A DNA stretch of 61,983 nt, counting the filler, from Hausera hauseri (lineage: Eukaryota): assembly GCA_046269625.1 (NCBI GenBank). It is 13 parts of 13 records of this genome, joined end to end, with 100 filler letters (N's around TTAATTAATTAA, not from the genome) between each part and the next. Parts side by side here need not be neighbours in the genome. Positions count along the whole stretch, not along the records: positions 4,296 to 8,790 come from JBJURY010554227.1; positions 8,891 to 12,880 come from JBJURY010835637.1; positions 12,981 to 17,940 come from JBJURY010378258.1; positions 18,041 to 22,966 come from JBJURY010389701.1; positions 23,067 to 27,205 come from JBJURY010738766.1; 8 more parts are not named here. One strand, 5' to 3'. Position 1 is the stretch's first letter, and each line of letters begins with the position of its first letter. The position numbers and the translations under genes were made by a program. This document shows positions 1,135 to 31,512 of this stretch, one piece after another. A model generated the notes under the pieces. The model did no database searches. It saw nothing but the letters and a program-made list of their open reading frames with translations, and had not been told where the DNA came from.

Positions 1135-2072
1135 TCAATTGCGTAATGCCATGAATGAGTTTTTATTACAGATGGACTTGATTTTGTTAAACGGCTTTTT
1201 ATCTGATAGTAACGTGTCCAGATCCGTTATTGCTGCGAGCGTTGTTGGCTGCAGGTATTGTATTAGTGTTAAGGCCTTGTTTAGTTGGCCGGTGATGCTG
1301 CATTGAGTGGCCCATGTTTCAGACACATGGAACCACTTCAATGGAGTTCCGTCCAAATCTATAAAGAAGGTTTGACATGCTAATTTGGGAGGTTTAGCCT
1401 GTGCTAATAATGCAGTTTCGGCTTTTTTGTCGGGCGTGAGTGTCGACGCCTCCTTCTAGTCTGAAAATGGCTAGTATGGTGTTGTTTGAAGTGAATATTG
1501 TGTTGATTGTGCACTTATTCTTATGCAATATTTTTCCATTATGTGAAAATATATGCTCGGGATATTGTTGTTTTAGAACTTTCAGCATATCCGACATGTC
1601 TAGGGTAGGTACAGAGTTGTACTTCGTTTGCCGTACTATGGATCGATGTTGTTTCATAATAGTGAATTTTGTTGGCGATTTCAATCGACTGAAGATTGAG
1701 TAAATGGTTGAGTAGCGACTTTTCGATTATTATGTGTGCTATTTTGGCACCATTAGTATACTCTGGCTTGTATTTTGATTTTACGATGTCGGTATGTGTC
1801 TCAGTGCTAGGATATTTTAGCACTTGTTCAAAATCGCTCACTGTAATAGCCGTAGGGTTAGCGGGTCTCGTGTTATCACTTTTAGTGATGTGAGTATTTG
1901 TGGCAGGATTGTTTTCGACTGCATTACTCTAAATTTTAGCTTGACTGCTGTCATTTCATGTGCGCGGTGTTTGAGCCGGATTGTTTCTAACGGCTGGGTT
2001 TATCGAAATTCCCGAACCAGTCGGTTCGGTACAGTGCGAAATGGACGTGTGTGCGGTATTCGCTGCCACCAT
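1135..2072 (-). pseudogene. gag: Gypsy-type gag precursor: N-terminal extension + ubiquitin-like domain (RLEGG) + capsid N-terminal domain, decayed
   Basis: An ATG at 2072 overlaps the PBS and is in frame with ORF 1539-1841 across two stops. A frameshift leads into ORF 1394-1684 (HIFSHNGKIL...NNTILAIFRLEGG). A 1-nt frameshift near 1440 leads into KPPKLACQTFFIDLDGTPLKWFHVSETWATQCSIT...PFNKIK, which follows the Gypsy capsid pattern P..WF...E......I......K......L......PY..LK. Confidence 0.6.
2061..2071 (-). promoter_or_regulatory. Primer binding site, tRNA-Leu type (TGGTGGCAGCG)
   Basis: 11-nt complement of the 3' end of tRNA-Leu (CGCTGCCACCA), directly after a U5-like T/G-rich tract and just upstream of gag. 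Confidence 0.65.
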
Positions 2073-4295: not shown

Positions 4296-5410
4296 CTTTC
4301 TTGTCATATTGTTTTCTAAACTGTTCTTGATATTCTTGGGATAATTCCTTGGCGATCTCACAACACTTTTGCAATCGCGTTTGTAATACTTCTGAGAAAT
4401 TTTGTTCTAAATCTTCGGGATTGACTGTGTATGGCGTCATTCCTAAGTCCGTGGGAAACACGGTTTCACATCCATACGTCATAAAGAATGGCGTAAATCC
4501 CGTTGTTGGATGTAGCGTGGTATTAATTGAAACTGAGTTCCTTCTAAAAATTCGTCCCAGTCTTTTTGGTCCTTGGCCACTACTGTCGATAATATATGTA
4601 CGACGGTAGCATTCGTCCGTTCGACCATTCCATTACACTGAGGATGACATGCAGTGGTCGTTAATCGTTCGACTTCAAATATTTTGGTGATTTTCTCAAA
4701 TAATTCACTTGTAAAATTTCTCCCTCGATCCTTGAGTATCTGGTCTGGGGGTCCGTATCGGCAAATAATTCGTCTCACTACGGCTTTTGCTAAAGTTTCT
4801 GCTTTCTGATCAATTAATGCTAGCAACTCGACGAAATCAGTTAGTCGATCAATTCACGTCAAAATGTGCTTATTGTTCTTGTGAGTCATAGGAAGAGGTC
4901 CTACGATATCCATCGATATGGCTTGCATAAGCCTGTCGGGTACATGAATTGGTTTTATTTTGGCCATGTAATTTTTCGTCTTCTTTTGCTTAATTGCACA
5001 TACTTCACAAGCATTCACCCAATTCTTTACATTAATATAGATACTAGGCCAAGAGTATTTATTCATTATCCTTTCTAATGTCTTCTTCCAGGACATGTGT
5101 CCGGCTAAGTACGAGTCGTGCTCTGACATTAACACTTCGGTTCGTAAACCTTTGGGAATAACTATCAGTTTTCTTCCTTTTCGCTCGTAATATAAAATAT
5201 CTTTGTCGCTCTTGTCATTTAAGACGCAATATTTATGTCTGTGTAAATTTTTCTTTAAATTTTGTCCTCTTGGTATGACATCCTTCTTAGAAAATTCTAT
5301 AATCTGCTGGATGACCTTATCCTTTCTCTGTTCTGTTGAAATTTTAATGGCCTTATCCACCGTCAAAACGCGTTTGCGGTCTATTATTTCTTCAAGTTGA
5401 CTTTTCTTCA
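4296..5410 (-). pseudogene. pol: Integrase (HHCC zinc finger + DDE core)
   Basis: HDSYLAGH...W...CEVC; ISMDIVGPLP; RYGPPDQILKDRGRNFTS; HPQCNGMVERTN. Confidence 0.93.
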
Positions 5411-5830
5411 TTACCGTGATTGCGCTGGTTTGGTCTTTAAGCTAGAAAACGCATTGGCGTCTACGTGTTTGTTTCCTGGCTTATACTGAAATTCGATATT
5501 ATATCTGGAGATTTCTTCGATCCATCTGTTAAGTCTGCATGTCAGATTATTTTCTCGACCCTTCAAAGTCGTAACGGCCTTGTGATCGGTGAGAATTATA
5601 ATTTTCTGCCCGTATACGTAAACATTAAAATGTCGAAGTGCTTCCTTTACAACTAGAGTTTCCAATTCGGTAACAGAATAATTTTTTTCAGCCTTCTTCA
5701 AAGAACGTCCTCCATAAGCAATCGGATGCTCCAATTCTTCATCCTCTCTTTTCTGTGCTCGTTCATAACCAATGCTTTCTTTACTGGCGTCTGTCTTGAT
5801 TATGAAGGGTAACTTAAAATCTGGATATCG
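5411..5830 (-). pseudogene. pol: RNase H domain
   Basis: PDFKLPFIIKTDAS; HPIAYGGRSLKKAEKNYSVTELE; ILTDHKA; KPGNKHVDANAFS. Confidence 0.92.
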
Positions 5831-5899
5831 TAAAACAGGTTCACTTGTTAATATCTTAATCTCGTCAAACGCTTTCTGTTCGACGTCTGTCCATTTCCA

Positions 5900-6683
5900 T
5901 TTAATTCCTTTTTTAAGCAGACGATATAGAGGTGCATTAATTTTTGAATTATCTGGTACATAGGTTGTGTAATATCCGCAGAGTCCTAATCAGTGTCTTA
6001 ATTCCTTCTGGTTTTGTGGTTCCATGCAGTCTGATATTTTATTTAGCAGCGATTTATCCGGTTTCGATCCTCCTTCTCCAATTATATGGCCAAGATAGGA
6101 TACGGCGTTTTGAGCCCATTTGCATTTCTTCGGATTTAACTTCAATCTGGCTTGTTCCAGTCTCATCAGTGTGTGTTCGATATTCCTTTAAGTGTTCCTC
6201 TTCGGTCCTTGATGCTATCATTACGTCATCTAAGTATGCAAAAGCATGATCCAATCCCATTAGCATTTTATTCATAATTTTCGTAAATATAGCTGGTCCA
6301 GTAGTAATACCGAACGTCATGACATTAAATTCATAAACACCATCGTGTGTTTTAAATGCTGCCTTATAGCGGTCTTCGTCTTCTATCTCTACTTGCCAAT
6401 ATTTGGATTGTAAGTCCAGCGTAGTAAACCACTTGGCTCCTCAGAGTCGGTCTAAAGCCTCTTTCACTGACGGTAATGGGAAAGAATCTTTCATCATAAG
6501 ATTATTCAGGGCTTTACAGTCAATACAAAATCGATGTTTTGTGGTACCTTTCTTTTTGACCATGAGGATTGATAAGTACCAAGATCTATAGCTGGGCCTA
6601 ATTATATCGGCCTTAAACATTCGTTCGACTTCCTTTGTTATCTCGGGTTTTATCGAGTGTGGTGGAAGGTACCATTTCGGCAT
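5900..6683 (-). pseudogene. pol: Gypsy reverse transcriptase (stops and frameshifts)
   Basis: IIRPSYRSW...VKKKG...RFCIDCKALN...DSFPLP; MTFGITTGPAIF; FAYLDDVMIAS. Confidence 0.93.
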
Positions 6684-6785
6684 CTTCTGATCCTCAAGAT
6701 CTATTTTTTCATTCGAACCAGGCTTTTTCTTGAGCGAAATAGTCCGTTTTAATGCTTTTTAATATTCTGGCTGATCGTCATCTTG

Positions 6786-7841
6786 CTAGATCTGTGCATA
6801 AATTATTATCTCTGTTCTTGGTGGAATATTTTCGTCTACTGGTATCCACACTTCTCCCAATTTTCTATCCTTAGCGTTTTTTACGCCTTTATTTGGCCTG
6901 ATTTCTATTAGTTTTCCTGTTTGTAAGTCAATTGCAATATTCGGTATCCTTTTCAGTAGATCACATCTTAATACGACGTCGTCAGTTAATTGTTCCATGA
7001 TTGCAAATTCGTGACGAAAAGTTTGTCCAACTATTTGAACTTCTGGGTTCCATTTAAACATCGGTTTTGACATTTGGCCAAAAGCTCCTGTACTTCCTGG
7101 AACCCTTGTAGACGGTGGGTATAATTGTTCTCTCAGCGTTTGAGGTATTGAATCATTTTTGATGTAAGACGTCTCGGAACCCGTATCAATTAATGCATAA
7201 ACTTCCCAATCTTCGATAATAATTTTAGCGAAGGGTCTTCCTTCTATTACCGTTTCGAAACAGTTTGACGCTACTTTTGGGCGTTTAATTACCGATATTT
7301 TATGTCCATTGATTCGAATTTCTGGGGAGGATACTATGTTCTCTTCCAGCTGCTTTAATTCTCCGTTTGGGTAAAGCTCATTGTTTTCAATGCTTAATTC
7401 TGCCGTTTCATGAGTACTAATTAACGGTTCTTGGTTGTTAGTATGTAGTTCAGTATTCTGGAAGGTCTTTAATCTTGAGCTATCCCAAACTGTCGATCTA
7501 GTTTTTATATTTTTGGGTTCTCTCGGTGAATACAACATCTTTGGATCATCTGTGGATTGTAGGTAACACATTTTCCATAGGATCCCGTAACGTTTGGTTC
7601 CTTCATAAGGGTCTTCTACATTAATTGTTCTTTTATAGATTTCCGTCTGATATGAACTCATTGATCGTTTATCGCAGTCTTCATAGAATGGAGCGGTGGG
7701 AGGCAACATAGGTAGTGGCGCCTTTATGACAGAGTATGTCTTATGTCTGTTTATTCCTGGAAGTACTTCTCCTCCCTTAGGCTCATCATCATCTGAATTA
7801 TTCCTTCGTGTACTATGCTTGATGAATTTCCGCTTGTGCAA
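6786..7841 (-). CDS. pro: Spacer + retroviral-type aspartic protease
   Basis: YALIDTGSETSYI active site and DVVLRCDLL (the ILG.D.L motif). Same frame as env upstream and RT downstream. Confidence 0.85.
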   Translation of the reverse strand: MHKRKFIKHSTRRNNSDDDEPKGGEVLPGINRHKTYSVIKAPLPMLPPTAPFYEDCDKRSMSSYQTEIYKRTINVEDPYEGTKRYGILWKMCYLQSTDDPKMLYSPREPKNIKTRSTVWDSSRLKTFQNTELHTNNQEPLISTHETAELSIENNELYPNGELKQLEENIVSSPEIRINGHKISVIKRPKVASNCFETVIEGRPFAKIIIEDWEVYALIDTGSETSYIKNDSIPQTLREQLYPPSTRVPGSTGAFGQMSKPMFKWNPEVQIVGQTFRHEFAIMEQLTDDVVLRCDLLKRIPNIAIDLQTGKLIEIRPNKGVKNAKDRKLGEVWIPVDENIPPRTEIIIYAQI

Positions 7842-7904
7842 GAACGTGGACCTTCTTTTCCGTTTACGATGATAATATCCGATATGGCGTTCTACGTCCG
7901 TTTT

Positions 7905-8790
7905 TCATTTGTTTTCTTCGTATGCCTTTAAGAATTTTCCAAAGGGTGTTATGATTGCAGTCAATACCTTACATGAAAATCCAGTCAATGTAAATATTTC
8001 ATAGCCATTTATTACTGCTTGGATGACTGCTTTAATTATCTGTATCAAGAAATATATCGCTAAGAATCCGGATGCCGCTTTTCCGAATATCAGAAACCTT
8101 CCCCACATTTTGTAAAGTATTTCGGTTGTTACTCGCTGATAATGGTTTACACTGAGTAAAGATTCCCATTTAGCCTGCTATCGTGTATCATCGACTACCG
8201 AAGCCATAAATCGATTTAACTCATGTGTTTGTTGTCGTGGAAAGGCAAGGAATTGTCTAAAAGCCTCAATTTCCTTCGGTCTGTATATACCTTTCCATGA
8301 GGTGTCTTGAAATTTATATGTAATTCCTTTCGCGAGATTTGTTCCTTTCAATTTATTTGAAGCGGCAATAATACCTCCATTCGGTAAGCTAACCCAATCT
8401 GTCTCACTACGTCTAAACATAGGTTCTGCTAAGCTTGCCTTACAATTTTTAAGGATGGTTGGTTGGGTAGCGTTATCCAATAACACTCTCGTCAGCGGTG
8501 TAGCTAATCTCTGAATACTTTGGTAAATAACAGGAAGTTCTTGAATGCAACGTTTTTCTCTCATGTTAATAGGTACATCTCTCTTTTCACATTCGTAGGT
8601 CAGCAATACTTCACCTGTAACCCGACCGAAGATTCCTTCTCTCGTGGGAATTATTGGAGAAGCCAATTCTGGATTTGCATATATTAAAGCCATTTTAATT
8701 CTCATAATTTCCCTATCCAATTTGCAGTCATTCATTATCATTTTATGATATAATTTCGTTATTTCAACTTGCCCTTTATAGTAGAAGTAA
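7905..8790 (-). pseudogene. env: Envelope glycoprotein, C-terminal half + transmembrane region; chuvirus/Monjiviricetes-like class III fusion protein
   Basis: LYHKMIMNDCKLDRE...NPELA...GIFGRVTGEVLLTYEC...CIQELPVIYQ...PLTRVL...C....PMF...W...GIY...IEAFRQFLAFP...LN, then WGRFLIFGKAASGFLAIYFLIQIIKAVIQAVINGY. This follows the chuviral G consensus motif by motif. In-frame stop at 8178. Confidence 0.82.
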
Positions 8791-8890
8791 NNNNNNNNNN
8801 NNNNNNNNNNNNNNNNNNNNNNNNNNNNNNNNNNTTAATTAATTAANNNNNNNNNNNNNNNNNNNNNNNNNNNNNNNNNNNNNNNNNNNN

Positions 8891-9283
8891 TCTGCCGAAA
8901 ACTTTCGCCACTTCTTTTCCTCAACCACAAAAGTAGACGAAACAAACTGTCCCCTCTCTGATTATAAAGATCTTTCTAAATTTATTCAATCTAAGCTAAA
9001 TGGCACTGACCTTCCTGTATTACCTTTTCTCTCTGTCACAGAAGTGATCTCTCTAATCAGAAGTCTGCCCCGAAAGAAATCTTGTGGTATGGATGGTATT
9101 TCACCACGCATCCTGTACCAGCAGCTCCTGTCGTTGCTGAGTCACTTACGTATATTTATAACTCATGTATTACCCAGAAGATATTTCCAGAGCACTTAAA
9201 AGCAGGGCTCGTGTTTCCAATCCCAAAAAAGGGCAACCCTGACCTTGTAGAAATTTACAGACCAATTTCGCTTCTTTCTGCAA
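8891..9283 (+). mobile_element. Non-LTR retrotransposon (CR1/L2-like) ORF2 fragment, cut by an LTR insertion
   Basis: KKSCGMDGIS...SLTYIYNSCITQKIFPEHLKAGLVFPIPKKGNPDLVEIYRPISLLSA is the RT domain 0-1 signature. It ends abruptly at TGTGGCAG. Confidence 0.85.
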
Positions 9284-11845
9284 TGTGGCAGAATATGCCC
9301 GCCACAGGATGATGATAAAGCTAACCAAGGCACAAGAAAAGTAGAGAAAAAACTTTCATGCGAAACATGTGATTCTAGAAGTACGTGCTTACCGTGAATA
9401 GAAAGCAACTATCCCACGAACGATTTAATTAGCAGCATGCTAGACAGGAGACAAGGGGGGTTAAAGCCACAGGTCAGGCAGGTGGATGTTATGATACACG
9501 ACACTAAAAGGGGGAGGGTTACCTCGTACAGAGTAGCATGAACAGTGGCGATTCTCAAATTGGGAGGACAAACTAGAATAATGAAGTACCATAATGGAAA
9601 TGGAGGGACATTTATGATTACATGAAAGGAAGCATTGTAAGACCTAGAGACACTGTGACTTTTAGCAAGATCGCATAACACCATTCAATAAGTGTTTATT
9701 TTGCCAATCACTGTCATGAGACCCTGTATGTGACGAGAGAACTCTGCACAATAATAGGGATGATGGACAGTTTTGAGCTGACCTGTTGACCCATTCCCAC
9801 AGTTAGCCACCACGTGACAGTATGCTCGGGGTGCAACCGAGGACATTGCTGAAAAATCAATTCCCAGGTTGTCAAAGTTGAAGTTAGTAAACTTGTTGCC
9901 CCGACTGTATGGTAAACACGTGGTAGGTGCGGACGTGATCATGCGTGGGAACTTGTAGAAAACTAGCTAGAATTGGAGACACTATAAAAAACTCAGTAGA
10001 TCAACAAGAAAAAAGGATTTTATCATGCACTGAGAGAGGACTTTTTCATGTACTGAGTCGAGGACTTGTGTGCCCTAGCCAGCAGCCGACGATTTCTCAC
10101 AATTATAGGGGGCTCATAGATGAGCGTAGAGCAGAACACGACATTAGTATATCTGCTGTCTCCGGATCAGAGACGCCGAGCCCTCTGCTAGGTGTCTACA
10201 CGAGAGAAACAGAGCCTCTGCTGACATCCTGTGAGACGGACCCAGCGGTTGTCATATGTGCTGATTATAGAACGGTTGTTTCTCCGACAAGCATCGGCAG
10301 CCATTGTGGACAACGCCACTCATCGTAAGTAGTTGAGAAGTTAACTAAGTGAGTGAGGTCCATATCGTCTAAGAAGGGAAAGTGCTGAGGCTAGTGGAAG
10401 TAACAGTGAAATAACTTTAATTGTTGAACTTAACTGTGAGGATAAAGAAGTGACAGTCCTTAGACATTTGATAGATTAAGGTTAAGAACCACTGTGGAGA
10501 ACCTTCAGGAAAATCTTAGTAGTACTGGTCGCGTATATTGGTCATTGGAAGGACTATTGAACATAATATGAGAACCAGTGCAAGGCACTGACAACTGGTG
10601 GGTTTATATTTGAGCTGTCACATTGTGTAGAGAAGTAGGCCGAGGTTAGAACAACCAAGTGACAGACAGTGCGCAGTTGCCAATCAGATAGAGGAGAACT
10701 GAGAGATGGTATTCGCCATTGTGGGTTTTATAGTGTTGTGGGGACAAGTAACAGAGAAACTTAACTCATAGACAGAGTATAATTGTTGCCACATTTAAGT
10801 GAAACAACTAAGTGAAAGACATTTTGTTCAATACATGCATAGTGAACACTTGAACACAGCACATCTCACCACACACACACCTCTGCGAGTGTTGGCAGGG
10901 AAATTGAATAACTGAAGATTATTGAACAACACAGACAACAATTAGACAATTAGCACAAGAACCAGAATAGTGACATGTGAAGTTTGTTGAACATTTATCA
11001 GACAGTTCAAAAGACAAATAACTTTATAAATTTTAACCTTACAGCAACTTGAACACCAGAGACCGACTGACAGAACAACGCAAACCAGATACCATGAATC
11101 ATAAGAACAACATACAGACATTAATCCGCAAGTTAGTTCAAGAAGACATTAACATTTTTGACAGTGCCATCAAAAACCTGGGTTAATTGGTGGATCATTC
11201 ATCAGGACGGATAATCCAGATCCACCCAAAAATACAGCTGGACATGACAACAATAGCACAGGACATGTTAGGGTTAATTAATTATAGAGGGAGATAATTA
11301 TATAAGACTTGTTTAGTTAGATGACAATTGTTTGAGACTGATTTTTGTTGTTGTTATTATCTCATGTTTGTAGTCATGAACTTCTATTGCATGAATATAC
11401 ACTCATAATATTTTACTTAAGATTTTTATTAAAAACTTGTAATTTACACTTTTAGAAAGCCAAGTGTTTGGTTAGTGTTTCGATTTAGTGTGTGACGTTG
11501 CAGTCTCTGTGTCGGATAAACAACTTATTAGGTAGTTAAGTGGATCTCCCGGACATCACTATTTCCATGATTTTCATGGGTCAGTGAGTCCATTGAAGTG
11601 TTCAAGCCTTGCGTGGATCCCAAGAGTCACGTGGATCTCCATTTGCACGTGTATCTCACACTTGCACGGGTTGCTCAAGTCTGGCGACTGGTCCGTGTGT
11701 TAGTTGGAATCGGGAGGTCACGTGTATCTCGATTATCACGGCCAAAGTGACTCTGTGGTTCAGTAAACATAAACACCCTCTTGGGCACTTGGAGGGTTAC
11801 CCCTGGTCCTTGGATTTACAGTGTGGGATTGACCGCACTGCCATA
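9284..11845 (+). repeat. Putative very long LTR (about 2.56 kb) inserted into the LINE
   Basis: Starts TGTGGCAG and ends CTGCCATA (8-bp terminal inverted repeat with 1 mismatch). A PBS-like sequence follows 11 nt later. Confidence 0.6.
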
Positions 11846-11856
11846 TAGTTATTTAG

Positions 11857-11874
11857 TGGTGCCGTTCGCAGGAT
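11857..11874 (+). promoter_or_regulatory. PBS-like sequence, tRNA-His type (TGGTGCCGTTCGCAGGAT)
   Basis: Matches the complement of an invertebrate tRNA-His 3' end (TGGTGCCGTGACCAGGAT) apart from three central mismatches. Confidence 0.5.
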
Positions 11875-12980
11875 CTTTCTTGGATAGGATCGTTCCTCTC
11901 ATAGGATCATCTTGACAAGAAAGAAATAATAACAACATAAAGATAACAGTGGAGGACACAGGGGTAGAATAAGATAACACTGAGACTGCATGATAGAATG
12001 ACACACGGACTATAAGTAGATATAGTGAATTCTAATATCAGTTTATTACAGGAACATTTGGATGTAGGTGATTACATTTGCATTGAATAACATTATGTTC
12101 CCCAGTTTCACAATTTTGTTCAAGATGCTGTGGCATCCATTTCTGTATACAACAACGCATATTTTATCTAAAACCCCTGTTTCTGCAGGGATCCAGCTTA
12201 ACTATCTTAATAAAGCTGTTTTTAAAATTAAGGGAACAAAATGGTTGAAAGTAAATCTTAGGGTAAAATATGCTAGAAAAAACTATAGTCTCCCCACCAA
12301 AATTTGGATCACAATATTCTATTCAAACACAGTATGTATAAATTGAGAATTTTTCTAATAATTGTTTTTAAATTAACCTGACCAATTAATTGGAAATAGC
12401 TAATCTGAAATTATTAATATGAAACGTTTAATCCGAAATAATCAATATCAATTTGTGTTAAACATAAATTAATTTAAATGGGTTATTTAGATTCATTTGA
12501 TTATTTATGGTCACTTTTCATTAAAATACAAAATTTTGTTTAGTCAGATAATAAATAGTGTTATATATTGGGGTGGCCCTTAACGATCTCCCACTATATA
12601 ACAATAGTTTACTCTCGAAATTGAATAGCTTACGCAGATTCGATTTAACGTTCTCGTCAAATGAATGTGCCAATATGTGATGATTTTAATAATGCGTGTA
12701 CTTTTTGCCGTATCCTGTGCACGGGTTAATTAATATTCTCGTACCTATGTAAGTTTAAGTGAGATTTTAGCCTTAATGTTGTCAAACCAGCCTTAAGGGC
12801 CGGTGAAAAACTATATGGGAATTTTAAAAGAAAATATTAACACTCACAATATAATAGACCAATACACGTCAAGCAGCAACNNNNNNNNNNNNNNNNNNNN
12901 NNNNNNNNNNNNNNNNNNNNNNNNTTAATTAATTAANNNNNNNNNNNNNNNNNNNNNNNNNNNNNNNNNNNNNNNNNNNN

Positions 12981-14100
12981 TTCTCATTTATACACACTTA
13001 ATGGCATTAAATTATTTTTATTCGGTCCAGAGATATATCGATTTTTCGATATTACACACAGAAAATCCCGAATATCTCTGCATGCAAACAACATTTTGGG
13101 CTGATTTTGGTTTACATAATAGCTATTGAATAGAAGTACATGACAAAATGAAAAAAATATTCGAAAAAACATTCGAAAATCGAGTTTTATCGAAAAAAAT
13201 TGAAAATCGATAATTTTGATTTTATTTGATAGAGGACATTTTCCTGATTCCAACAAACTTGATCGCAGGTCAATACGACCTCTGGGGGCTGAGATATTGC
13301 GTTTCGAATACATGAAGCACTGAAAATCGATTTTTATTTTAAAGTTTAATTTGATATTTTTACGTGTACTCGATAGAGAATTTTTTTCCATTTAACCCAC
13401 TTGATCACACGTCAATAGGATTTTCCATTGCGGAGATATTTTATTTTGAATATTTTTTTCGAAATATTCGAATCGATATATATTCGAAACTGAAAGTCAT
13501 ATTGACTTGCGACCTGTACCAATCGATAGAGCTAAAAAAACTGAACATTTCTCATGTAGGACTCAAAATTATTCGAAAACTCGGTAATTCTAAAAATGGA
13601 ACTCGAAAAAAATTTTTTGAATAATTTATGCCCAAGATAGAATATTTTTTCGCTATCCAACAAACTTGATTTCACTTTAATATAATTTTTCGTTAAGGAG
13701 ATATTGCGTTTTGTAAATATTTTTCGAAATATTCGAATCAGTATATATTCGATTGCTTACATCGTACAGACTTGAGACCTATACCATCCGATAGAGCTCG
13801 CAAAACTGAACATTTATGTCCTTCCAACCAAAATTATTCGAAAACTCGGTGAAAAAATATTCGAGTTCGAAAACATTTTTTTCGAAAAATTTTTTCTAAT
13901 AATACCATCATATACAGAATTCGAAAATATATATTTTTCATTTTTTCGAAAATTTTCGAAATTTGCATCGAATCAGTGCTAAAATCAATATTGCACTTTC
14001 GAAAATCAATATTTAACTTTTGAAAATCAATAGTGCACTTTGAAAAAAAAAAAAATTTAAAAATTCATAAATTAAAAAAATTTATTTTTGAATATTGATT
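12981..14100. repeat. AT-rich TCGA-rich repeat with about 267-bp direct repeats and a short 20-21-bp tandem; probable non-autonomous DNA transposon interior
   Basis: 13430-13625 resembles 13698-13895 (TTCGAAATATTCGAATC...CGATAGAGCT...AAAATTATTCGAAAACTCGGT). AAAATCAATATTGCACTTTCG-like unit x3 at 13981-14043. Confidence 0.6.
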
Positions 14101-14357
14101 TCCAATCCTGGGGGTGGCCCAGTGCGCTGCCTTCCTCCTCGCCCTTCTGTATTTCCGTTTTTTTAAATAATAAACATAATTGCACAAATACATCAACACA
14201 CCTAAACACTGCGGCCATCTACAACATCATCTCCACTTTTCTTTTCTCACCTGAATTTTACCTCACACACCACGGCTCCACAGTACCTCTCGTTGGGACC
14301 CTGCAATTTTTTTCATCTTATATCTGCCTTTACATATACTTCCGCATCCGTGGTGGT

Positions 14358-16589: not shown

Positions 16590-17186
16590 TGTGGTGCCGC
16601 GGACTCGGGCGCCACCATAGTCCAAGTAGATCTGAGAAAATCAAGAAACTGTACAAGAGACACTTAATTTTGAAACCAAACTTGCACCCATTAAATCTAA
16701 AATTAAAACAATCCCTGATTCTGAAAAATTGATTGCAAAATCCACGCATTGAGCGTAACCAAGTCAGTTGCTGATAATCCAGATTCCTGTGCTGTATTGT
16801 ACAAAAATCTCTTATATTCAAAAGAAAAATTGTTAATTTTGTTGCTACCGTATCTGGTTTTGAGGCAGTTATGAAAATCTAATCTCAGTGTGTAGAACTA
16901 AATAATGATGATATCCTACGTCTCCTCTTCTGAAACGATTTGCTCTTTGTAAACAAGACGATGAATTAGGAACGCTGCCTGATTTACGCAAAAATAATAA
17001 ATTACTTCTGTGAGGATATAATTGAGAACAGAAATTCTAAATTTAAATCAGAAACATTTCCAAATTTAAATTAAAATATTAATTTAAAAGTAATATTAAA
17101 AGTCTGATTTAAATTTGGAAAATTTGTTTCCAAATAAATATTTTGAATGATAATAAAAAATTTTCAACAAGTGTTGTTACTTTTCA

Positions 17187-17940
17187 ATGAGCAATTACAA
17201 ACAATCAAATTCTGATTCGGCGGACAGACCAGTGGGTGGGGATTTTCCAACCCTACCCAAGCTGGGCGACGAGGTAGACGGCGTGGATGCGAACACGCCC
17301 AACACGGCGACTTACGACACAATGGACATCTTCGCGAACCAATTCCTGCCCAACAAATTCAGGATAGGCGACGACGTGGAGAAGTTTATTAGAGGATGTG
17401 AAAAATTCTTCAAATATATAAACACCCCGACCGCAAAGCGAGAGATAATGGTTGAATGTCTCTTGGAAGAAGATGCACTAGAAAGATACGAGGCAGTAGA
17501 TGCAAGGATAACGGGATATCAAAACCCACTGCGGAAGGCTTTTGCCCGATCCTCAACGCTATGTGAAGATCTAAAAGAAGCGCTCGAGTACAGAATGAAT
17601 GGAGCGGAACCGGAAGCTTACTTCGAAACAATCGAAAAACTTCTGGATAAAATCATGAAACACAATCTTTCACGCGAGGCTCTAAAAGAGGAACTATTGT
17701 TTTAATGTTGTAACAATGGAGAGATGAGAAGAAAAATATGCCTCAGTGAAAAAAAAAAGACGCGGAAACAATAAAGGAGAAAATACGGAAGTTACACGAG
17801 GTTAAGATTAAGACAGAAGAAGTCAACACGGTCAAGGAGTATACATGGATCGGTAGAAGAAGCTACCAGGAAGTGGCAGCACAAAATATCAGAAAATCCG
17901 TTCCTGGAATCAACTCGACCCCTACTAGACTGCCAAATAG
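17187..17940 (+). pseudogene. gag: Gag-like ORF of another LTR element (partial)
   Basis: PNKFRIGDDVEKFIRGCEKFF...LLEEDALERY...LRKAF...EAYFETIEKL is a capsid-like pattern. It continues through a stop and frameshift to the contig end. Confidence 0.55.
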
Positions 17941-18040
17941 NNNNNNNNNNNNNNNNNNNNNNNNNNNNNNNNNNNNNNNNNNNNTTAATTAATTAANNNN
18001 NNNNNNNNNNNNNNNNNNNNNNNNNNNNNNNNNNNNNNNN

Positions 18041-18790
18041 AATAACGTCTGATCACACCTTCTGGTATCACTTTCTAATTTAAATCTCATTCCATCCTGA
18101 GGGTTTGCTGAATATACTATTGTTGGTGTTTTAATCATATCTGATACTCTATCCAATCTACTCTTGGGTATCTCTTCTTTATACATACGGCCATTTGTTT
18201 CATTGAATTTTCCTGCTTTTAATAATACTGACTGACACTGATCTTTGTCAACTTCATATGACATGATTGATTCACCGGTATCTCATTCTTTATTGTAGTA
18301 ATCACATTCAGGAAATATCATCATTTTTCCTGATGATAATTCAGAGAGCATTATACTCTCTTAACTCGACTTGATAATCCTCAATAGCTACAATATTATC
18401 TAACATTCCCTTACAATATCCCGTTTTATCATTTGTTACAAAGGCTTCCACACACATTCGTTTACTTATAGGAAGTGGTTCGAACTGAGTAGTAGGTTCT
18501 ATAATAGCATTATTTCTATACCAGTAGCCACAGATAAAATGAAATTGATTTCTTCGAACAAAACATTCTTTTACTTTAGTTACGAATTCTGATTCTTGAT
18601 AAACATAGTAATCCTCGTCTATCTTTGTAGTTAATAATTCCGGATTGGCAAATGGACATTTTTCTTAATCTAATATAGAATATATAGGGCTTTCTTTAGC
18701 TTGACTACAGTCATAAGCAATGATTGAGTGTTTTTGGCAAAAGACTGAACAGAAGGAGTATGGGTATAACTTTTCTTAACCATGATAAGT
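18041..18790 (-). pseudogene. env: Envelope glycoprotein N-terminal half with internal signal peptide; chuvirus-like class III fusion protein
   Basis: WLRKVIPILLLFSLLPKT / IIAYDCSQAKESPIYSILD*EKCP...YYVYQESEF...KECFVRRNQFHFICG...MC. This matches the chuviral G N-terminus pattern (AYDC...SL.D...C...Q...C.V......CG). Downstream ...VYSANPQDGMRFKL...RCDQTL. Confidence 0.78.
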
Positions 18791-20468
18791 CAAAATCTGG
18801 TTGTAAGTTTTATTGTCTGTCCGATCGTTGACGTGGAATATATTCCCCTTGTCGTTGAGTGGCTGACACTGACTCGTATCGTCTTTTGAATCAAGCTAGT
18901 AATTCATCCTCCTCTGCACTTTACCCATCCTTCAACATTGACCTTTAATGCTCTTGTGGCTATTTCTATGTTTCTTTCTATTTCTTCTTGATTCGGGTTT
19001 ACACCATTCATTACCATTATTTTATATAGAAGATATGGCTGTTATAATTTTGTTACGGGATATACCTGTTCCCATCATTCTGGATAAAATATCTCTTGGA
19101 TTTCGTTTATTCTCTCGTCCGTAGGGATATCTGCAAATTGCTCGCTAACCTTTGCGATTTCATTCCTTATAGCTTGTATTAATGAGTCTGGTATTTGCAG
19201 ATTAGTGTTGAACTTGACGAATGCTTTATGCATTCTTACTAATAAAGTTTGTGGTAGTGTTGCCAAAGATACATTATTTACATCGTATTCATCTTCTGTT
19301 GTCAGCAATCTTCTGACGACTTCATCATCTCTGGCTTTTCTACCCTTTAATTGATAAAGTTTTGTTGTTCCTTTTGGTTTTCCACGCGTTCTTTTATCTG
19401 TTTGTATTTGTTCAGTTATAGGGATATTCATTTCAGTTCCTATTTGTGGTGTTCCTTGATGCTGTCCATGTTCTTCCATTTGTTTCTGTCTGACATCGGT
19501 TGTAATCTCATCGATTGCCTCTTGTTCAGATTGTCTATAAATAATGCATATCGGGTTATATCTGTTTTCCCAGATCCCTACCTCATATAACGTTTCATAG
19601 TCCATTAACACTCTTCCATAGGAACGCAAATCTAATTCTCCTTGAGGTTGTTTTATCTCATTAATTTTATGTTTCAAAGCATCTATCGTATCTAATGACT
19701 TCATTCTTAAAACATGAAAGTCTTGATTATATTGTTGGAGAGTAATCATTACTTCTGGATTTTCTCCGAGTGTTCTCACTCTTTCTGCGTATCGATAAAT
19801 TATATATCGTACGACTTTCTGATATGGGCTTGTGCTCGCAGCATACATTAGCAACAAATCTAACAAATTAGCAAATTGATGATGACTGATTGTTGGTAAC
19901 AATAACATTGAGAGGTCCTGTCTGAACTGAACTCCATCAATTAATTTCTGATTAGCATAACCAGATATTCTTCGAACTATTTCCACGCCATCCTGGTCTA
20001 AGCCTATAGATGAACTATCATATTCCAGTGGTCGTTCTACTTTCTTCTTATTTTTCCTTTTGGTTTAGTTTCACTTTCCACAGACTCACTTCCAGAAGGT
20101 AAATTCGTTTATGGGGTATTTAACTCTTCTTCTATAAGAGGTTTATGTTTCCTCTTTACTTTCTTCTTTTCAGTTTTCGATTCTGATTCAGGAAACTTTT
20201 TAGGCCTACCAACCGGAGCTACAATAGTATTTTCATTCAACATTTTGTCTCTGTTCACAAATCTGATGTTTCTTTAATTCAATATTGCTGTTTTAATTCA
20301 GCTATTTTATCCTCATCGTCTAACGTATTAGTCTTACTTTCCTTTAGTTTTGATCTAATCTTTTGCTGACGTTTTTCTATCGTATCTTCAGGCTTTGTCT
20401 GTGGTTTCATGTTCTTTATCTGTATCAGATATATTACCAATCATTTCGACTTGTTTCTTTTGATTAGA
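18791..20468 (-). pseudogene. Gag extension: AT-hook (PVGRPKK), helical domain, ubiquitin-like domain (19534-19752), second basic hook, helical domain
   Basis: VMITLQQYNQDFHVLRMKSLDTIDALKHKINEIK...LDLRSYGRVLMDYETLYEVGI aligns with ubiquitin PSDTIENVKAKI...LIFAGKQLEDGRTLSDYNI. Confidence 0.75.
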
Positions 20469-21380
20469 TTATCCTTGACTAGGATAAGAACGAGCCATAT
20501 GTTCATATTTTTGACATGAAAAACATAGTGGCTGTCCATCTTGATTAACCGGACGTTTTTTCATTGCAGACTTCTGAGGTTGATTTTGCCACGAAACCTT
20601 TTTCTGTTGGTGTTCTGGCTGACTATACTTCTGGGAGAATTTGCTGAGAATTCTTTTTCTGCTGAATATTTTTCGACTTTTTGTCATCATTTTTAGGATG
20701 CTTCTTAATATTTTCCAATCTCTCATAATTAACTTCAATTTTCTTAGCCTTACTAACAGCTTCTTTATGAGTCAGGGTCGGCAACAGTAATGTAGTTTTG
20801 TATTTCCTTAGTAACTCCATAACAAAACTGAGCCAGGAGAGCTTCTTCTATTGTCGTTATTTGCATAGGCTCTCTGAGCCAATTTCTGAAGGGTACATGC
20901 ATATTCTTGCACACTTTTACCTTTTCTCTGACGTCGCCTGTTAAACTCTCCAATTCGACCTTTTCCTGATGGGTCTACTAAGAGTCTTTCTTCCTGGGCG
21001 TCCTCAAGGCTAGCCCAATCAGCCTTATCATCATCCGAAAGCTGAGCATAAGCACTAAGTGCTATTCCTTTAAGATGTAAGGGAAGACGTTGTATTCTAA
21101 GCTCATCTGTCCATGCATAGCTTTGTGAGTACATTTGATATTGCATCAAAAACTCACTATAATCTTGGTTTGGTTTTCCTTCAAACTTATCCATCGGGAG
21201 GACCATCGTACCATTTGTACTTGAACCGGTTCCTATTCCATAACTAGACATAGGTTTCTTTTCTGTACCTAATTCAATCAAAGGATTTTCGTCTGCTGAT
21301 TCAGAACTGCTTGCTGAATCGGTGCGTGAAGTTATAGTATTAACGTGTATACGTTTACTTCGTAAAGAATACGACGCCAG
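20469..21380 (-). pseudogene. gag: Gag (capsid + degenerate CCHC knuckle CFSCQKYEHMARSY), putative CUG start
   Basis: MDKFEGKPNQDYSEFLMQYQMYSQSYAWTDELRIQRLPLHLKGIALSAY...W..L; RRQRKG.SVQEYACTL; QFCYGV. Confidence 0.88.
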
Positions 21381-21386
21381 TGTGCC

Positions 21387-21404
21387 TCCTCACTCGGGGC
21401 ACCA
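21387..21404 (-). promoter_or_regulatory. Primer binding site complementary to elongator tRNA-Met (TGGTGCCCCGAGTGAGGA)
   Basis: 18-nt site 1 nt after the LTR-terminal CA. Complement of ...CCTCACTCGGGGCACCA, the 3' end of invertebrate elongator tRNA-Met. Identical in copy B. Confidence 0.85.
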
Positions 21405-21405
21405 G

Positions 21406-22121
21406 TGACAAGTTTATGAGTTTAAAAAGAAGTTTGGGTTTTCTCAACCCTAAACTTATTCTCTAATACAATAGTAATAATAGTCTAGGGTAATTTATTT
21501 CCAAAACTCTTCTTTATTTAGTCTTACGAGCAGCCTGTGGGGTCTGCTTTACAAATTAATATAGATCGGTGAGTGTCGATCACTAGGAGGTACACTAGTG
21601 TCGTTTTCCCTTTATTTAAAGTATATTAGACAACCGTCTTATGGACGGAATACCAAAAAGAGGGACCCAAATATTAACTTAATTAACCTTAGTTAAGTTA
21701 AATCAAAACAATGTTACACTTAAAAATATATTAAATGCAAAATACTAAAATGATTAACAAAGAAAATGACAATACTTACAAGAGTTGTAATACATAGTAG
21801 CTCAGCAAAGAATAGTCACCAAGATTTATTTGTAATCGCTAATGTCAATGTCGACTAAAAATCTCATGCTTATATAGTATATTATCACACACATTAATAC
21901 ATAATTAAAATTGATTTTTCTCACAAAATAATTACATAAGAATATAACGTAATACAGATAATATCAAATGAATTATCATTGATAAAAGAACAAAGATCAT
22001 AAAATCACATGGATTATTATTTGAATATTGAAAAACAATTGTCAATAAAAATTATCATCATAGTCGAACAATGTTTGTCAGATACCTAATATGAGTCCAA
22101 AAGTCCAACTCGTTGTCAACA
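21406..22121 (-). repeat. LTR of copy A (716 bp, TG...CA)
   Basis: Starts TGTTGACA directly after the PPT and ends TTGTCA before the PBS. Shares blocks with LTR B (GTCTTACGA, GCCTGTGGG, AGGAGGTACACT, ACAACCG, TACCAAAA). Confidence 0.85.
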
Positions 22122-22132
22122 CCTCCCTCCTC
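22122..22132 (-). promoter_or_regulatory. Polypurine tract GAGGAGGGAGG
   Basis: Directly adjoins the LTR-initial TG. Confidence 0.8.
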
Positions 22133-22966
22133 AGATGGCGTTATCCTCAACGCCAGAGGGCAGGTCTCTAAGACTCCATTGTCATATTTATAGTTAGCGG
22201 AATCTAACCGCAGCCACTGATTTCCTTTACGAATTTTCTTTTTTAGTGATTGTTTCATGAATTTTTTGTAGTCTTTGTGACATCAATTATAATAGCATCA
22301 TTAGCAGCAAGTGTTTGACTGGTAACCGATTGATTGGAGGGTAGAATGTCTGAAGGTCCATCAATGTCCATTGATTCTGGAATTCGTTTGGAGGTCTCTT
22401 TCATGGCTGGAAATTGTTCATGTGTAGAAAGCATTTCTGTAACTGATTTTTGGTTATCTTTATTCGTTTCATACTCATGAATCGGTTTATGGATTTTTAG
22501 CATCACTGTAGCATTCTCTTTTGTCCGAAGAGGATAGACGATATCATTATATTAATGAGAATTTGTTTTTGGGTCAATTTCTTTTCTGGGTTTATCTCAT
22601 TATGATAGAACAGATCTCTGATACCATGAATTGTGTTAATGTCAACCAAATCAAGATGTAAATTATTACAAACGTTCATTCCAACGATTAAACTTCCGTT
22701 GAGTTTTTGTCTGATTAAAGATCTAATTTGGTAAGAATCTATCTACCATTGTATATCTGTTTCTTTTAATCCGGTGATTTGACTATTATAATTGTCAATT
22801 CGGTCCATTGGGGTGATTACTTCATCAAGGATAATATATCCTTGTAGATCCATGATGGTTATTTCTGTTAGTGTAATTTCTTTGTTACGTAATGGTGTTA
22901 GTAGATAAGCGGAATTGACGGCTAATACATTTATTTTATTTTCCTTTATTTTTGGTAATCGAGAGA
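22133..22966 (-). pseudogene. 3' ORF with REX4/ISG20-like DEDDh exonuclease fold lacking catalytic residues
   Basis: VLAVNSAYL...EITIMDLQGYIILDEVITPMDRIDNYNSQITGLKETDI...LNGSLIVGMNVCNNL...IRDL...RTKENATVMLKI. The reading frame runs, with breaks, up to the PPT. Confidence 0.7.
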
Positions 22967-23066
22967 NNNNNNNNNNNNNNNNNNNNNNNNNNNNNNNNNN
23001 NNNNNNNNNNTTAATTAATTAANNNNNNNNNNNNNNNNNNNNNNNNNNNNNNNNNNNNNNNNNNNN

Positions 23067-25538
23067 CAACATTGGCCTTCAAGGCTCTTGTAGCTACTTC
23101 TATATTTCTCTCTATTTCTTCTTGATTCGGGTTTGCACCATTCATTACCATTATTTTATATATGAGATAGGATATTGCTGTCAGAATTTTATTTCGGGAT
23201 ATACCAGTCCCCATCATTCTTGATAAGATATCTCTCTCCTGAATTTCATTTATCCTCTCATCTTTATGTATGTCTGAAAATTGTTCACTAATCTTTGCAA
23301 TCTCATTCCTAATAATTTGCATTAATGAATCCTGTATTTGTAGATTGGTATTAAACTCAACAAATGCATTATGTTGCCAATGATACATTATCTACGTCAT
23401 ATTTATCTTCTGTTGTTAGCAATCTTTTAACAACTTTGTCATTTCTGACTTTCCTACCTTTCAACTGATAAAGTTTCATCGTTCCTTTTGGTCTGCCATG
23501 ATTTCTTTTATCTGTTTGTATTTGTTCTGATATGGGAATGTTCGCTGCCCTTTCTATTTGTTGGGCCTCATGTTGATGCTCAGTTTCCTGTGTTCCCTTT
23601 CGCCTAACATCAGTAATAATTTCGTCAATTATTTCTTCGTCCGACTGCTTGTAAGTGATACACACAGGATTGTATCGGTTTTCCCAGATACCTACTACAT
23701 ACAATGTTTCATTATCCATGAGAGTACGTCCATAAAAACGTAACTCTATTTCTCCTCGAGGCTGAACAATCCCATTGATATTATTTTTCAATGTCATTAT
23801 TGTATCCAATGACTTCATTCTTAGAACATGGAAATCTTGGTTATACTGTTGTAACGTAACCATTACTTCAGGGTTTTCTCCAACTGTCCTCACTCTATCC
23901 GCATAGCGATAAATTATGTATCGTACAATATTCTGATATGGGCTTGTACTCGCAGCATACATTAACAGCAAATCCAGTAAATTAGCAAATTGTTGATGGC
24001 TGATTTTTGGGGATAGTAGCATAGACAGATCTTCTCTAAACCCAGTATTATCAATTAGTTCTTGGTTGGCATAGCTGGATATTTTCCGAACTATTTCTAC
24101 GCCATCCTAGTCTAAATCCACAGATGAAGACTCATAACTTGGGGATTTTTAATTTATTTTTTTTTCCTTATTCTTTTTATCTTTTCCTTGGGTTTACTTT
24201 CTTCACTTGATTCACTTTTTTCACTTTCACTTCCCGAACGCAGGTTAATTTCTGGGGTCTTCAGTTCTTCTTTTTGTATCAAAGGTTTATTCTTTTTCTT
24301 GACCCTTTTCTTTTCAACATCCCATTCTGATGCGCGAGTCTTTTTAGGTCTACCAATAGGAACAATGAGTGAGCTTTCATCCTTATTTTCTGTCTTCTCT
24401 CTCAGGTTTGTTGCTCCTTTAATTCAAAGTACAGCTGTTTTAGTTCGGCTAGCTTATCTTCATCCTCTATCGTATTAGTTTTACTTTCGTTTAATTTGGA
24501 TCTGATGTTTTGTTGTAAATTTTCAATCGTTTCTTCGGGCTTTATATCTGTAGTTTCATGTTCATTATCCGTGTTAGATATATTACCTACTATATCAGCG
24601 TTCTTTTCTTTTGACTTGACTGTCCTTGGTTAGGGCAGGTACAAGCCATATGCCCATATTTTTGACATGCAAAGCATAGTGGTTGCCCATTTTGATTAAC
24701 CGTTGGTTTCCTCATCGCGGATTTTTGAGGTTTGTCTTGTTGCCATGTAACCTTCTTCTGCTGTTGTCTTGTTTGATTCTGAATTTTATAGAACGGTTTT
24801 TGAAATTTTTTCTTTAACTGAGGGTTTTTCATCTTTTTAGCATCAGTTTTGGGAGGCTTTTTGGTATTTTCTAATCTTTCATAATTCAATTCTATCTTCC
24901 TGGCCTTACTGACAGCTTCTTTATATGTGTCAGGATCAGCAACTATAATATAATTTTGTATTTCCTTAGTAACCCCATATCAAAACTGAGCCGGAGGGCG
25001 TCTTCTTTATGTCATCATCTGCATAGGCTCTCTGAGCTAATTTCTGAAGGGCACATGCATATTTTTGCACGCTTTCACCTTTTCTATGACGTCGCCTGTT
25101 AAACTCTCCAATTCGACCTTTTCCTGATGGGTCTACTAAGAGTCTTTCTTCCAGGACGTCCTTGAGGCTAGCCTAATCAGCTTTTTCATCATCCGTAAGC
25201 TGAACGTTAGCACTAAGTGCTATTCCTTTAAGATGCGAGGGAAGACGTTGTATATTGAGCTCATCTGACCATGCGAAGCTTTGTGAGTACATTTGGTATT
25301 GCATTAAAAACTTACTATAATCTTCGTCCGGTTTTCCTTCAAACTTATCCATCGGAAGGACCATCGTACCAGTTGCATTTGAGGCAGTTCCTATTCCAGA
25401 GCTAAACATTCGGTTCCTTCCTATTTGAGTGTTTCGTTCAACCAAGGGAGTTTCGTCTGATTCAGAGCTACTCCGTGCTGAATCAGTGAGTGAAGTTGCG
25501 ATATTAGCGTTAACTCTGCTTCGAGTGTTATACGCCAG
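23067..25538 (-). pseudogene. gag: Gag + AT-hook + ubiquitin-like extension, copy B
   Basis: ORFs 25173-25445, 24590-24889, 23369-24022 and 23067-23388 are near-colinear with copy A. Confidence 0.85.
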
Positions 25539-25544
25539 TGTGCC

Positions 25545-25562
25545 TCCTCACTCGGGGCACCA
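25545..25562 (-). promoter_or_regulatory. PBS, elongator tRNA-Met
   Basis: TGGTGCCCCGAGTGAGGA, identical to 21387-21404. Confidence 0.85.
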
Positions 25563-25563
25563 G

Positions 25564-26277
25564 TGATAAGTTTATATGCTAAGGTTTATTGGTCTTACGA
25601 CCTTAAACTTATACTCTAAAAGCTTGAGTCCTTTCCTTGCCTCAAGCTTGACTTATTTTATTATGGTAATCAGCGGCCTGTGGGTCCGCCGAAGTCTAGT
25701 TACCTTGATTATTCTATCTTAGTGTGCGAGTTTCGTCAGGAGGTACACTGACGTAGTTTACCTTTATTTATCGAATTTTGCACAACCGACCTTTTTAACG
25801 GAAGGTATACCAAAAGGGGTCCTGATTTTGAATTAATTATGCCTATTGCAATACAATACTCTTATTAATCGATTCTTAAAGAAAAGCAATGAGACAAAAT
25901 ATTTAATAAAAATTATGCTAGTAACCAAAAATACGTAATAATGATCAAAATACGTAATAAAATGAATATAATCAAAAATACTCACAGTTATCACAAATAT
26001 AATTCATGTCGCATCAAATGTCAAAATTGTGTGTGTTATAGTACAGATTATGCCAGTATTTAGAGTCACTGGTTGTTGAATAAAATTTACATAATAAATA
26101 AAAATTCATTTTCATAAATTAAAAGAAAATACAAGTCAATTTAAAAGTATGTAAAAAAACGAAAATCAATTTGTCTGTCAACAAAAATCAATTTAATTTT
26201 CCCAAATGTTTATTTTGTGCTCGCATTGTTAGCTTGTTTATTTTGTGCTCGCCTTGTTTACTTGCATTGTTTGTACA
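25564..26277 (-). repeat. LTR of copy B (714 bp, TG...CA)
   Basis: TGTACA after the PPT AAGGAGGGAGA (26278-26288). Ends TTATCA before the PBS. Nearly the same length as LTR A. Confidence 0.85.
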
Positions 26278-26289
26278 TCTCCCTCCTTA

Positions 26290-27205
26290 GATCATGCTGT
26301 CCGCAGAATCAGAGGATAGGCTTCTATAATTCCATTAGAATCTTGATTTAGTACTAAATATTCGCCCTTTTTTATCTCTTTTTTTAAGGTAATTGTTTCT
26401 ATTTTAGTGGTTTTCTTTTTCTTTTATGAAACTTTCGTTAGATCAACGAGGATTGATTCGGAAGAGCTGGCTATCGTAAGTGTATTCAGATCAATGTGAC
26501 AATTCTTTGTAAAAGTTGGTACTTGGTCATCAGTAGATTGGATCAATATTAATTGACTTGATGTAGATTGGGTAGATTTTGGATGGGAAAAGATTGGTTG
26601 AACGTCTGGAAAATCTTGTACATCCATTGGAACTTCGAACAATTCATCTTGGTATTCCGAAATTGTATTGTAAATTTTTAATATGGTTGAAGCTTTGTCC
26701 CGTGTTCTTTGGGGGTACGTATTGCCATTATATTTAGTAAAAATTTGTTTGGCTGTGAATTCCCGTTGGGGGTTAATATCTTTACGATATAACAGTTCTC
26801 TGATTCCTAATAAATTATTATAATCGTATCTGAAGATGTAATAATTAACTTTCCAACGATTTCTTTCCTTAGGTACGGTTCTTTATGATAGGAATCTTTT
26901 TGTCCAATCATGTCATCTCATTTTAATCCAGTAATATGACTATTATAGTTGTCTATTTTTTCTCTTGGGCACAAAATTTCATCTACAATGATTCCACCAC
27001 CCAGATCCATTAAAGTTATTTCCACCGTGGTCATTTCTTTATTTCTAATTGGGGTGAACAAATATATCAGATTTACGGCCATTACTATTATTTCTTCTTT
27101 TGATCTTATTGACCTTCTAGTAAATGATAATCCTTTTTCTACGTCGATTTCTTTTTGCCTTGGGGTAATGTACTTAGGGATTTGATAATCCAAACGTGGT
27201 ATTTG
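26290..27205 (-). pseudogene. 3' ORF with inactive DEDDh exonuclease-like domain, copy B
   Basis: VMAVNLIYLFTPIRNKEMTTVEITLMDLGGGIIVDEILCPREKIDNYNSHITGLK...IRELLY...PQRTRDKASTILKI. Confidence 0.7.
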
Positions 27206-27446
27206 NNNNNNNNNNNNNNNNNNNNNNNNNNNNNNNNNNNNNNNNNNNNTTAATTAATTAANNNNNNNNNNNNNNNNNNNNNNNNNNNNNNNNNNNNNNN
27301 NNNNNTCTGTCAATGATTTATCGGAATTGCACGGTGAGTCCTGTTTTTGTTTATAGAACTCCACACAGTTTTTTTATGTTCTTAAAATATGTATATATAT
27401 AAATAAATTACTAAATTATCAATTAGAAGTTAGTGGAATTTTTAAT

Positions 27447-31412: not shown

Positions 31413-31512
31413 NNNNNNNNNNNNNNNNNNNNNNNNNNNNNNNNNNNNNNNNNNNNTTAATTAATTAANNNNNNNNNNNNNNNNNNNNNNNNNNNNNNNN
31501 NNNNNNNNNNNN

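Follow-up and report, generated by a model that had tools for sequence, protein, structure and literature searches.

The stretch of Hausera hauseri DNA considered here (the window, 61,983 nucleotides in all) comprises 13 separate contigs of 4-6.5 kb each with artificial spacers between them, and adjacency across a spacer is meaningless. Three of these contigs, 4296-8790 (copy A), 18041-22966 (copy B) and 23067-27205 (copy C), carry parts of a retroelement family in which an envelope gene (env) lies between gag and pol; all three are read on the minus strand, to which their coordinates below refer. Copies A, B and C are interpreted as decayed pieces of a multi-copy Ty3/gypsy family, likely from a flatworm, in which gag, a ubiquitin-like (Ubl) domain, a probable BCL-2-like domain, a gB-type env and pol most likely formed one polyprotein. 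The probability given to this reading is roughly 0.82. The copies in the window are themselves non-functional.

Envelope and Pol on Contig A

Between 8789 and about 6185 a single frame of copy A has 5 stops in its 873 codons, whereas the other two frames contain 74 and 75, and this openness was matched by none of 1000 dinucleotide shuffles. The initial annotation had placed the C-terminal half of env, its transmembrane (TM) segment, the protease and the start of the reverse transcriptase (RT) in one minus-strand frame, as these counts bear out. The stops lie at 8178, 7905, 6786, 6759 and 6441, so that protease and RT are separated by two (6786 and 6759) and not by the single stop first described. 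Pfam domains follow in the order PF24664 Monjiviricetes_fusion (profile positions 323-599 of 653, E 3e-42), RVP, RVT_1, RNase H, Integrase_H2C2 and rve. The C-half of the env ectodomain (8178..8789; PF24664 E 1e-20), class III or chuvirus-G-like in character, runs off the contig start and leads into a membrane region (7905..8177) that has a TM helix (8010-8066; Kyte-Doolittle score, KD, 2.2), then another hydrophobic helix of lower score (7941-7997; KD 1.5), and ends at the stop codon 7905-7907. A coding linker in the same frame (7248..7904) connects env to an aspartic protease (6786..7247; RVP E 1.6e-4); counted from 7949, the stretch from TM to protease contains 1 stop in 234 codons, equalled by 0 of 1000 dinucleotide shuffles. 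RT and RNase H (RH) occupy 5420..6700 (RVT_1, RT_RNaseH), with stops and a frame change near 6185, and a broken integrase (IN; 4296..5330; Integrase_H2C2 and the rve core) runs off the contig end. Copy A is dead, with stops in env and RT and frame changes in RT, ahead of the integrase and inside it.

The pol of copy A is of the Ty3/gypsy (Metaviridae) type, with the order protease (PR), RT, RH and IN and an RT whose best sequence match in the PDB is the Ty3 RT (E 4e-30), far above caulimovirus and HIV. A tree of the C-terminal part of RT with RNase H groups copy A with six env-polyprotein relatives, apart from four env-less gypsy proteins (82/89 support). The distance from the protease to the YxDD motif, 319 residues in copy A, is about 85-115 residues shorter than the 403-435 of six relatives. 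In the public run X1, 20,588 contigs, most of them 80-95% alike, cover all 30 bins of contig A, env included. Such contig numbers give no copy number; the even cover indicates that the family is abundant and that env travels with pol.

Putative Long Terminal Repeat, Gag and Gag Extension on Contigs B and C

From the primer-binding site (PBS) onward, copies B and C are 78.5% identical in DNA, and both show a coding remnant, a purine tract, a putative long terminal repeat (LTR) of about 0.7 kb, an 18-nt PBS and gag. The remnant of copy B (22400..22964; dN/dS 0.15 against copy C) lies upstream of a polypurine tract (PPT; 22122-22132) and a putative LTR (22121-21406; TG...CA, about 716 bp), which together span 21406..22132 as delimited from sequence. 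A PBS-like 18-mer (21387..21404) is identical in B and C, giving 2 matches against 0.01 expected. The counterpart remnant of copy C occupies 26600..27205, and its purine tract, putative LTR (26277-25564, about 714 bp) and PBS span 25545..26288. The PPT-LTR-PBS unit occurs once each in B and C; no contig has two LTRs, hence there is no target-site duplication, and the LTR is delimited from its own boundaries because each contig holds one. In both contigs 3' sequence thus stands before the 5' end (21406-22966 and 25564-27205), reflecting either tandem copies with a common LTR or an assembly that ran through the LTR. The remnant, which is under purifying selection, is probably a 3' accessory open reading frame (ORF) of the family. 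It gave no Pfam match; it may resemble a DEDD-type exonuclease. An exonuclease-like ORF3 is known from rotifer LTR elements (PMC5408684).

Gag capsid and a CCHC knuckle are recognizable, though frameshifted, at 20470..21260 of copy B (Retrotrans_gag E 1.4e-3, zf-CCHC E 0.027) and match residues 1-233 of P0159, one of the relatives found in protein searches and designated here by P-numbers. A helical domain followed by a Ubl domain lies at 19519..20010 (ubiquitin E 3.4e-5, at 24 bits just below the 25.4 cut-off; dN/dS 0.07 against copy C), and in both B and C an AT-hook-like motif comes after it. There follow a broken, probably BCL-2-like domain (18900..19190, matching P0159 651-748), a hydrophobic stretch taken as an internal signal (18726..18770; KD 2.0; P0159 786-802), with frame changes on both sides, and the N-half of the env ectodomain (18043..18727; PF24664 profile 18-119, E 4e-5), 65-75% identical to P0159 807-1071. 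This N-half contains stops and one frame change and has about 36 residues fewer than P0159. Copy C retains gag, CCHC, Ubl (ubiquitin E 0.005) and most of the BCL-2-like domain (23067..25410), and its contig ends before the signal.

With 12 frame changes in copy B and 5 in copy C, neither copy can itself show one ORF; across 18 aligned blocks the two have no common stop in the best frame. The gag extension is under strong purifying selection, with dN/dS of 0.07-0.17 in four blocks (0.46 in the gag capsid); two further blocks are saturated or misaligned. A programmed frameshift in gag was considered, since B and C change frame within about 20 nt of each other at three places, and was rejected because the gaps differ, no slippery site is common to both and P0159 is open there.

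Two other contig segments carry gag with ubiquitin-like sequence. The segment 36344-41426 (+) belongs to a third and distant family, in which gag and CCHC lead into a very long extension containing the same helical and Ubl block (8.5 bits with a Ubl-block profile, against at most 2.2 in 20 shuffled sets) and an AT-hook-like motif; it ends before any env and is possibly a larger, Burro-like element. At 1135-1726 (-) a DUF7041-type gag (E 0.002) is preceded by a short ORF that is ubiquitin-like by eye, down to a GG-motif end, and has no Pfam ubiquitin match.

Unbroken Natural Relatives

A search with the Ubl ORF of copy B returned one protein among 2605 candidates, P0159, which is 73% identical over 93% of the query. 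P0159 is one unbroken ORF of 1130 aa comprising gag, CCHC at 197, ubiquitin at 473-522, a weak Bcl-2 match at 651-748, a hydrophobic signal at 786-802 and env from 810. Its identity to copies B and C is 65-86% over the long Ubl, BCL-2-like and env blocks and 46-70% in gag and linker blocks. As P0159 is open throughout, the run from gag to env in one ORF is settled for the family. The initial claim that no in-frame ATG leads into the signal is unreadable from copy B, given its 12 frame changes, including those at both signal flanks, and an ATG at 18783 in another frame; it is shown by P0159, in which Met is absent between 713 and 801.

The stretch between Ubl and the env signal, absent from the earlier annotation, is likely BCL-2-like, judging from sequence comparison. 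The copy C piece aligns to P0007 with a score of 82, where 1000 shuffles reach at most 64, and weak Pfam Bcl-2 matches stand right before the env signal in P0007, P0009, P0019 and P0159 (E 0.001-0.065; 0.001-0.006 in P0009/P0007 and 0.055 in P0159).

The passage from env into pol is observed in other relatives. A full HMMER scan with the env of copy A gave 457 matches at E<=0.001, of which the best 150 were classified, and Pfam was run on 18 selected matches. A protease motif follows env in the same protein in 9 of the 10 top matches and in 15 of the best 150 of 457, while 77 of these 150 are stand-alone viral-type glycoproteins of 600-760 aa. P0006 (HBK71150.1), P0012, P0013, P0015 and P0085 have a zinc knuckle ahead of env as well; in P0006 and P0085 the protein continues through RT, RNase H and integrase, and Pfam confirms env-PR-RT-RH-IN in P0006, P0010, P0074 and P0085. 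The run from env to integrase is thus unbroken in more distant relatives. Word-index protein searches returned only 4 unrelated gypsy polyproteins with the env-to-RT frame of copy A, and with its env alone 0 of 835 candidates matched. A two-copy Ubl-block profile detected no Ubl in P0006, P0012 and P0019, nor did Pfam on two stretches.

Among these relatives some further features are apparent. P0006 was deposited as a hypothetical protein of a Flavobacteriaceae metagenome-assembled genome, where it is likely animal contamination in the bin. Long tails lie behind the integrase in P0006, P0010, P0074 and P0156; in all but P0156 they contain two or three additional hydrophobic segments. Protease-like repeats, 2-7 in number, occur in several relatives, P0156 carries ankyrin and C2H2 cargo, and in P0115 this glycoprotein is preceded by Ig domains.

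An env that came to rest in an ordinary gypsy element by nested chuviral insertion or as an assembly chimera is extremely improbable. The material does consist of short-read contigs from a repeat-rich genome, and the 3' sequence upstream of the LTR in both gag contigs may be an assembly join. The in-frame coding linker in copy A argues against such an origin, as do the thousands of X1 contigs that cover env and pol evenly, and the unbroken relatives P0159 and P0006, which come from other assemblies, largely refute it.

Envelope Class

The C-half of env, to which folding was confined, was modeled with a pLDDT of 83.9 from 108 sequences. Its best matches among BFVD predicted structures are glycoproteins of chu-like and related negative-strand viruses (E 1e-11 to 1e-9). 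In the PDB, Foldseek ranks herpes gB at the top, with a best E of 0.02 and nothing at E<=0.001. The top 4 matches in VIA are likewise all herpes gB (Z 7.2-7.9, a modest range that common arrangements also reach, here in agreement with the Foldseek PDB ranks), with 5ys2 at a root-mean-square deviation of 3.1 over 137 residues (domain IV). A PDB sequence search with the env C-half gave 0 matches. The chuvirus-type G protein with a class III fold proposed earlier accords with the PF24664 match, the BFVD chuviral G match (E 1e-10) and, for the C-half, the VIA ranking. The env between signal and TM is accordingly read as class III, gB-type and chuvirus-like.

Joining the Two Halves

The domain order on each contig and the common frame of env and protease in copy A are direct observations. 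A single ORF encoding capsid, internal signal, class III env, TM and enzymes is supported by the unbroken natural relatives and the fold search, on which the proposed gag-to-enzymes polyprotein stands; its assignment of A and B/C to one subfamily goes beyond the contigs. The two env halves are consecutive and non-overlapping, as first described, with the end of B and the start of A 38-40 residues apart on five relatives. By homology, contig A and contigs B/C may belong to one subfamily.

Several observations weigh against this interpretation. No contig or protein spans both halves, and P0159 ends approximately where A begins, without a match to A; the join of the halves therefore rests on homology. 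The BCL-2-like pieces of the window have no Pfam or PDB sequence match, direct BLAST of the piece to P0009 is not significant, and its model reaches a pLDDT of only 46.6. A tree of the N-terminal part of RT left the grouping of copy A with env-polyprotein relatives unresolved. The second hydrophobic helix, located after the TM helix, makes the side of the membrane on which Pol lies uncertain; this helix lies within the conserved PF24664 match and is regarded as amphipathic. The stop at 7905-7907 follows the hydrophobic helices by 10-35 residues, a position at which stand-alone glycoproteins terminate, and could be the natural end of env. P0009, the fourth env match, ends 16 residues past its env match. 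Finally, the env-pol relatives are 23-38% identical in env, the closest only 35-38%, so that the stop at 7905 is probably, not certainly, a product of decay.

Were that stop the natural end, expression would be in two parts: a gag-Ubl-BCL2-env ORF closing after the env tail, and pol reached by read-through, splicing or a start of its own. Such an arrangement would solve the 1:1:1 stoichiometry problem of a single polyprotein. It is nonetheless quite improbable: the same frame of copy A is interrupted by four further stops where the sequence is clearly coding, so that another is to be expected from decay, and in 9 of the 10 closest env relatives the protein continues past the env tail.

It is less improbable, though still unlikely, that A and B/C belong to different subfamilies and that the stitched order mixes two elements, both of the gag-env-pol kind. 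A and B do not overlap, about 39 residues between them are unsampled, and the genome contains several related lineages, B and C differing by 21% and 36344-41426 representing the distant gag-Ubl family. The order in which the two halves rank their relatives also differs to some degree (Spearman 0.43, 102 proteins), but the same small set of polyproteins is ranked highest by both. Each half alone shows env beside gag or beside pol, so that the overall order is independent of the join.

Comparison with Known Elements

The layout was at first taken to be new, on the understanding that prior cataloguing would refute this; Burro/GYPSM1 (PMC6431247) and GAG-ENV-POL errantiviruses (PMC13524379) had already been described. 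The latter are Ty3/gypsy elements with gB-type env found in Platyhelminthes, Nematoda and Bryozoa (Chary & Hayashi, eLife 2026, PMC13524379), including 9 flatworm elements with up to 215 copies, of which Smed_errantivirus_1-6 are from Schmidtea mediterranea. As in these gB-type errantiviruses, the pol is Ty3/gypsy, the order gag-env-pol, the env class III and gB-type, and the family compact and multi-copy (PMC13524379). The order is present as gag-env in copy B and P0159 and as env-pol in copy A, joined by homology only. Short env motifs of the window family resemble the Platyhelminthes C1a rows of that paper, by eye only. The portions of the PMC13524379 text at hand contain 0 occurrences each of "ubiquitin" and "polyprotein", though its figures may show such cargo, and those portions name neither Ubl nor BCL-2 cargo in the compact elements and are silent on whether gag, env and pol form one ORF. 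For the Smed elements a PBS was reported as not found (PMC13524379), whereas one is evident in the window copies. The intact ORFs and recent expansion that mark GAG-ENV-POL errantiviruses do not extend to the window copies, which are multi-copy but diverged in X1; this concerns the copies rather than the family, since P0159 is open. The window copies are dead, while intact Schmidtea copies are already catalogued (PMC13524379).

The Burro/GYPSM1 elements of planarians encode a single polyprotein in which gag, CCHC, Ubi2/SUMO-like and BCL2-like motifs are followed by an in-frame env and then by PR, RT, RH and IN (Arkhipova & Yushenova 2019, PMC6431247). Decayed Burro fragments are reported from another planarian (PMC6431247), and BURRO1 is expressed on piwi knock-down (PMC8532177). 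The window family appears to share this domain order: gag and env lie in one frame in P0159, as do env and pol in copy A apart from one stop, and no single molecule covers both junctions. As in Burro/GYPSM1, a Ubl domain and then a BCL2-like motif appear, by sequence, to precede env. Burro elements are 25-30 kb long, with an ORF of 4,900-5,100 aa and MATH/BIR/ankyrin/Smc/dUTPase motifs (PMC6431247). In contrast, the window family has about 810 aa before env (P0159) and LTRs of about 0.7 kb, and Pfam shows none of these motifs. It is Burro-like, not a Burro. The env class may differ as well, as the Burro env is related in the available part of PMC6431247 to gypsy Env and mononegavirus fusion proteins.

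In nematode endogenous retroviruses (NERV; Sacco et al. 2022, as cited in PMC13524379) env also precedes pol. The hosts of NERV are nematodes, unlike the likely flatworm host of the window family. NERV reportedly has a continuous gag-env-pro-pol ORF. Anakin is said to be a BEL/Pao element with a chuviral glycoprotein and with env after pol; its glycoprotein is of the same chuvirus-like family, but the element is BEL/Pao and not Ty3/gypsy. Among the relatives recovered here, P0049 and P0122 have env after integrase-type domains.

Host-Like Genes in the Window

Elsewhere in the window, 27357-31460 (+) holds an open frame of 1367 codons that looks like a processed or chimeric copy; by eye, we take it to be the start of an FAD-oxidoreductase joined to PKD/REJ-type repeats. 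A decayed, intronless gene at 33000-35000 (-) is presumably a vasa-like DEAD-box helicase, again by eye.

Proposed Mechanism and Implications

Synthesis of the polyprotein would begin in the cytosol with Gag-Ubl-BCL-2. Behind the BCL-2-like domain, the hydrophobic segment would serve as an internal signal, directing env into the endoplasmic reticulum and being cleaved by signal peptidase. At the TM helix translocation would halt, so that the chain would re-enter the cytosol and Pol would remain tethered to the membrane until freed by its own protease, while Gag would stay anchored via the signal remnant. Capsid, envelope and enzymes would thus come together at a single membrane, from which enveloped particles could bud; the tethering of Pol to that membrane and infectivity are what we infer. 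Should the second helix span the bilayer, Pol would end up in the lumen, and the model would call for a different route. A one-polyprotein design would also have its cost, in that Gag, Env and Pol are made in equal amounts.

A tentative extension of this model is that the family is a compact sister lineage of Burro, with only Ubl and a BCL-2-like domain in Gag, a gB-type env and an exonuclease-like accessory gene behind the integrase, and with the BCL-2 tail anchor reused as the env signal. The anchored Gag-Ubl-BCL-2 might then both seed budding and block apoptosis of the producer cell. A BCL-2 tail anchor doubling as an env signal was not found in a single search aimed at it.

Questions of threading and infectivity are hard to address with dead fragments on contigs of 4-5 kb. 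The layout is already published, and the window family adds a further host and a compact family to a known class. The Ubl-BCL-2-env order of the giant Burro elements would thereby also occur in a small element with a gB-type env.

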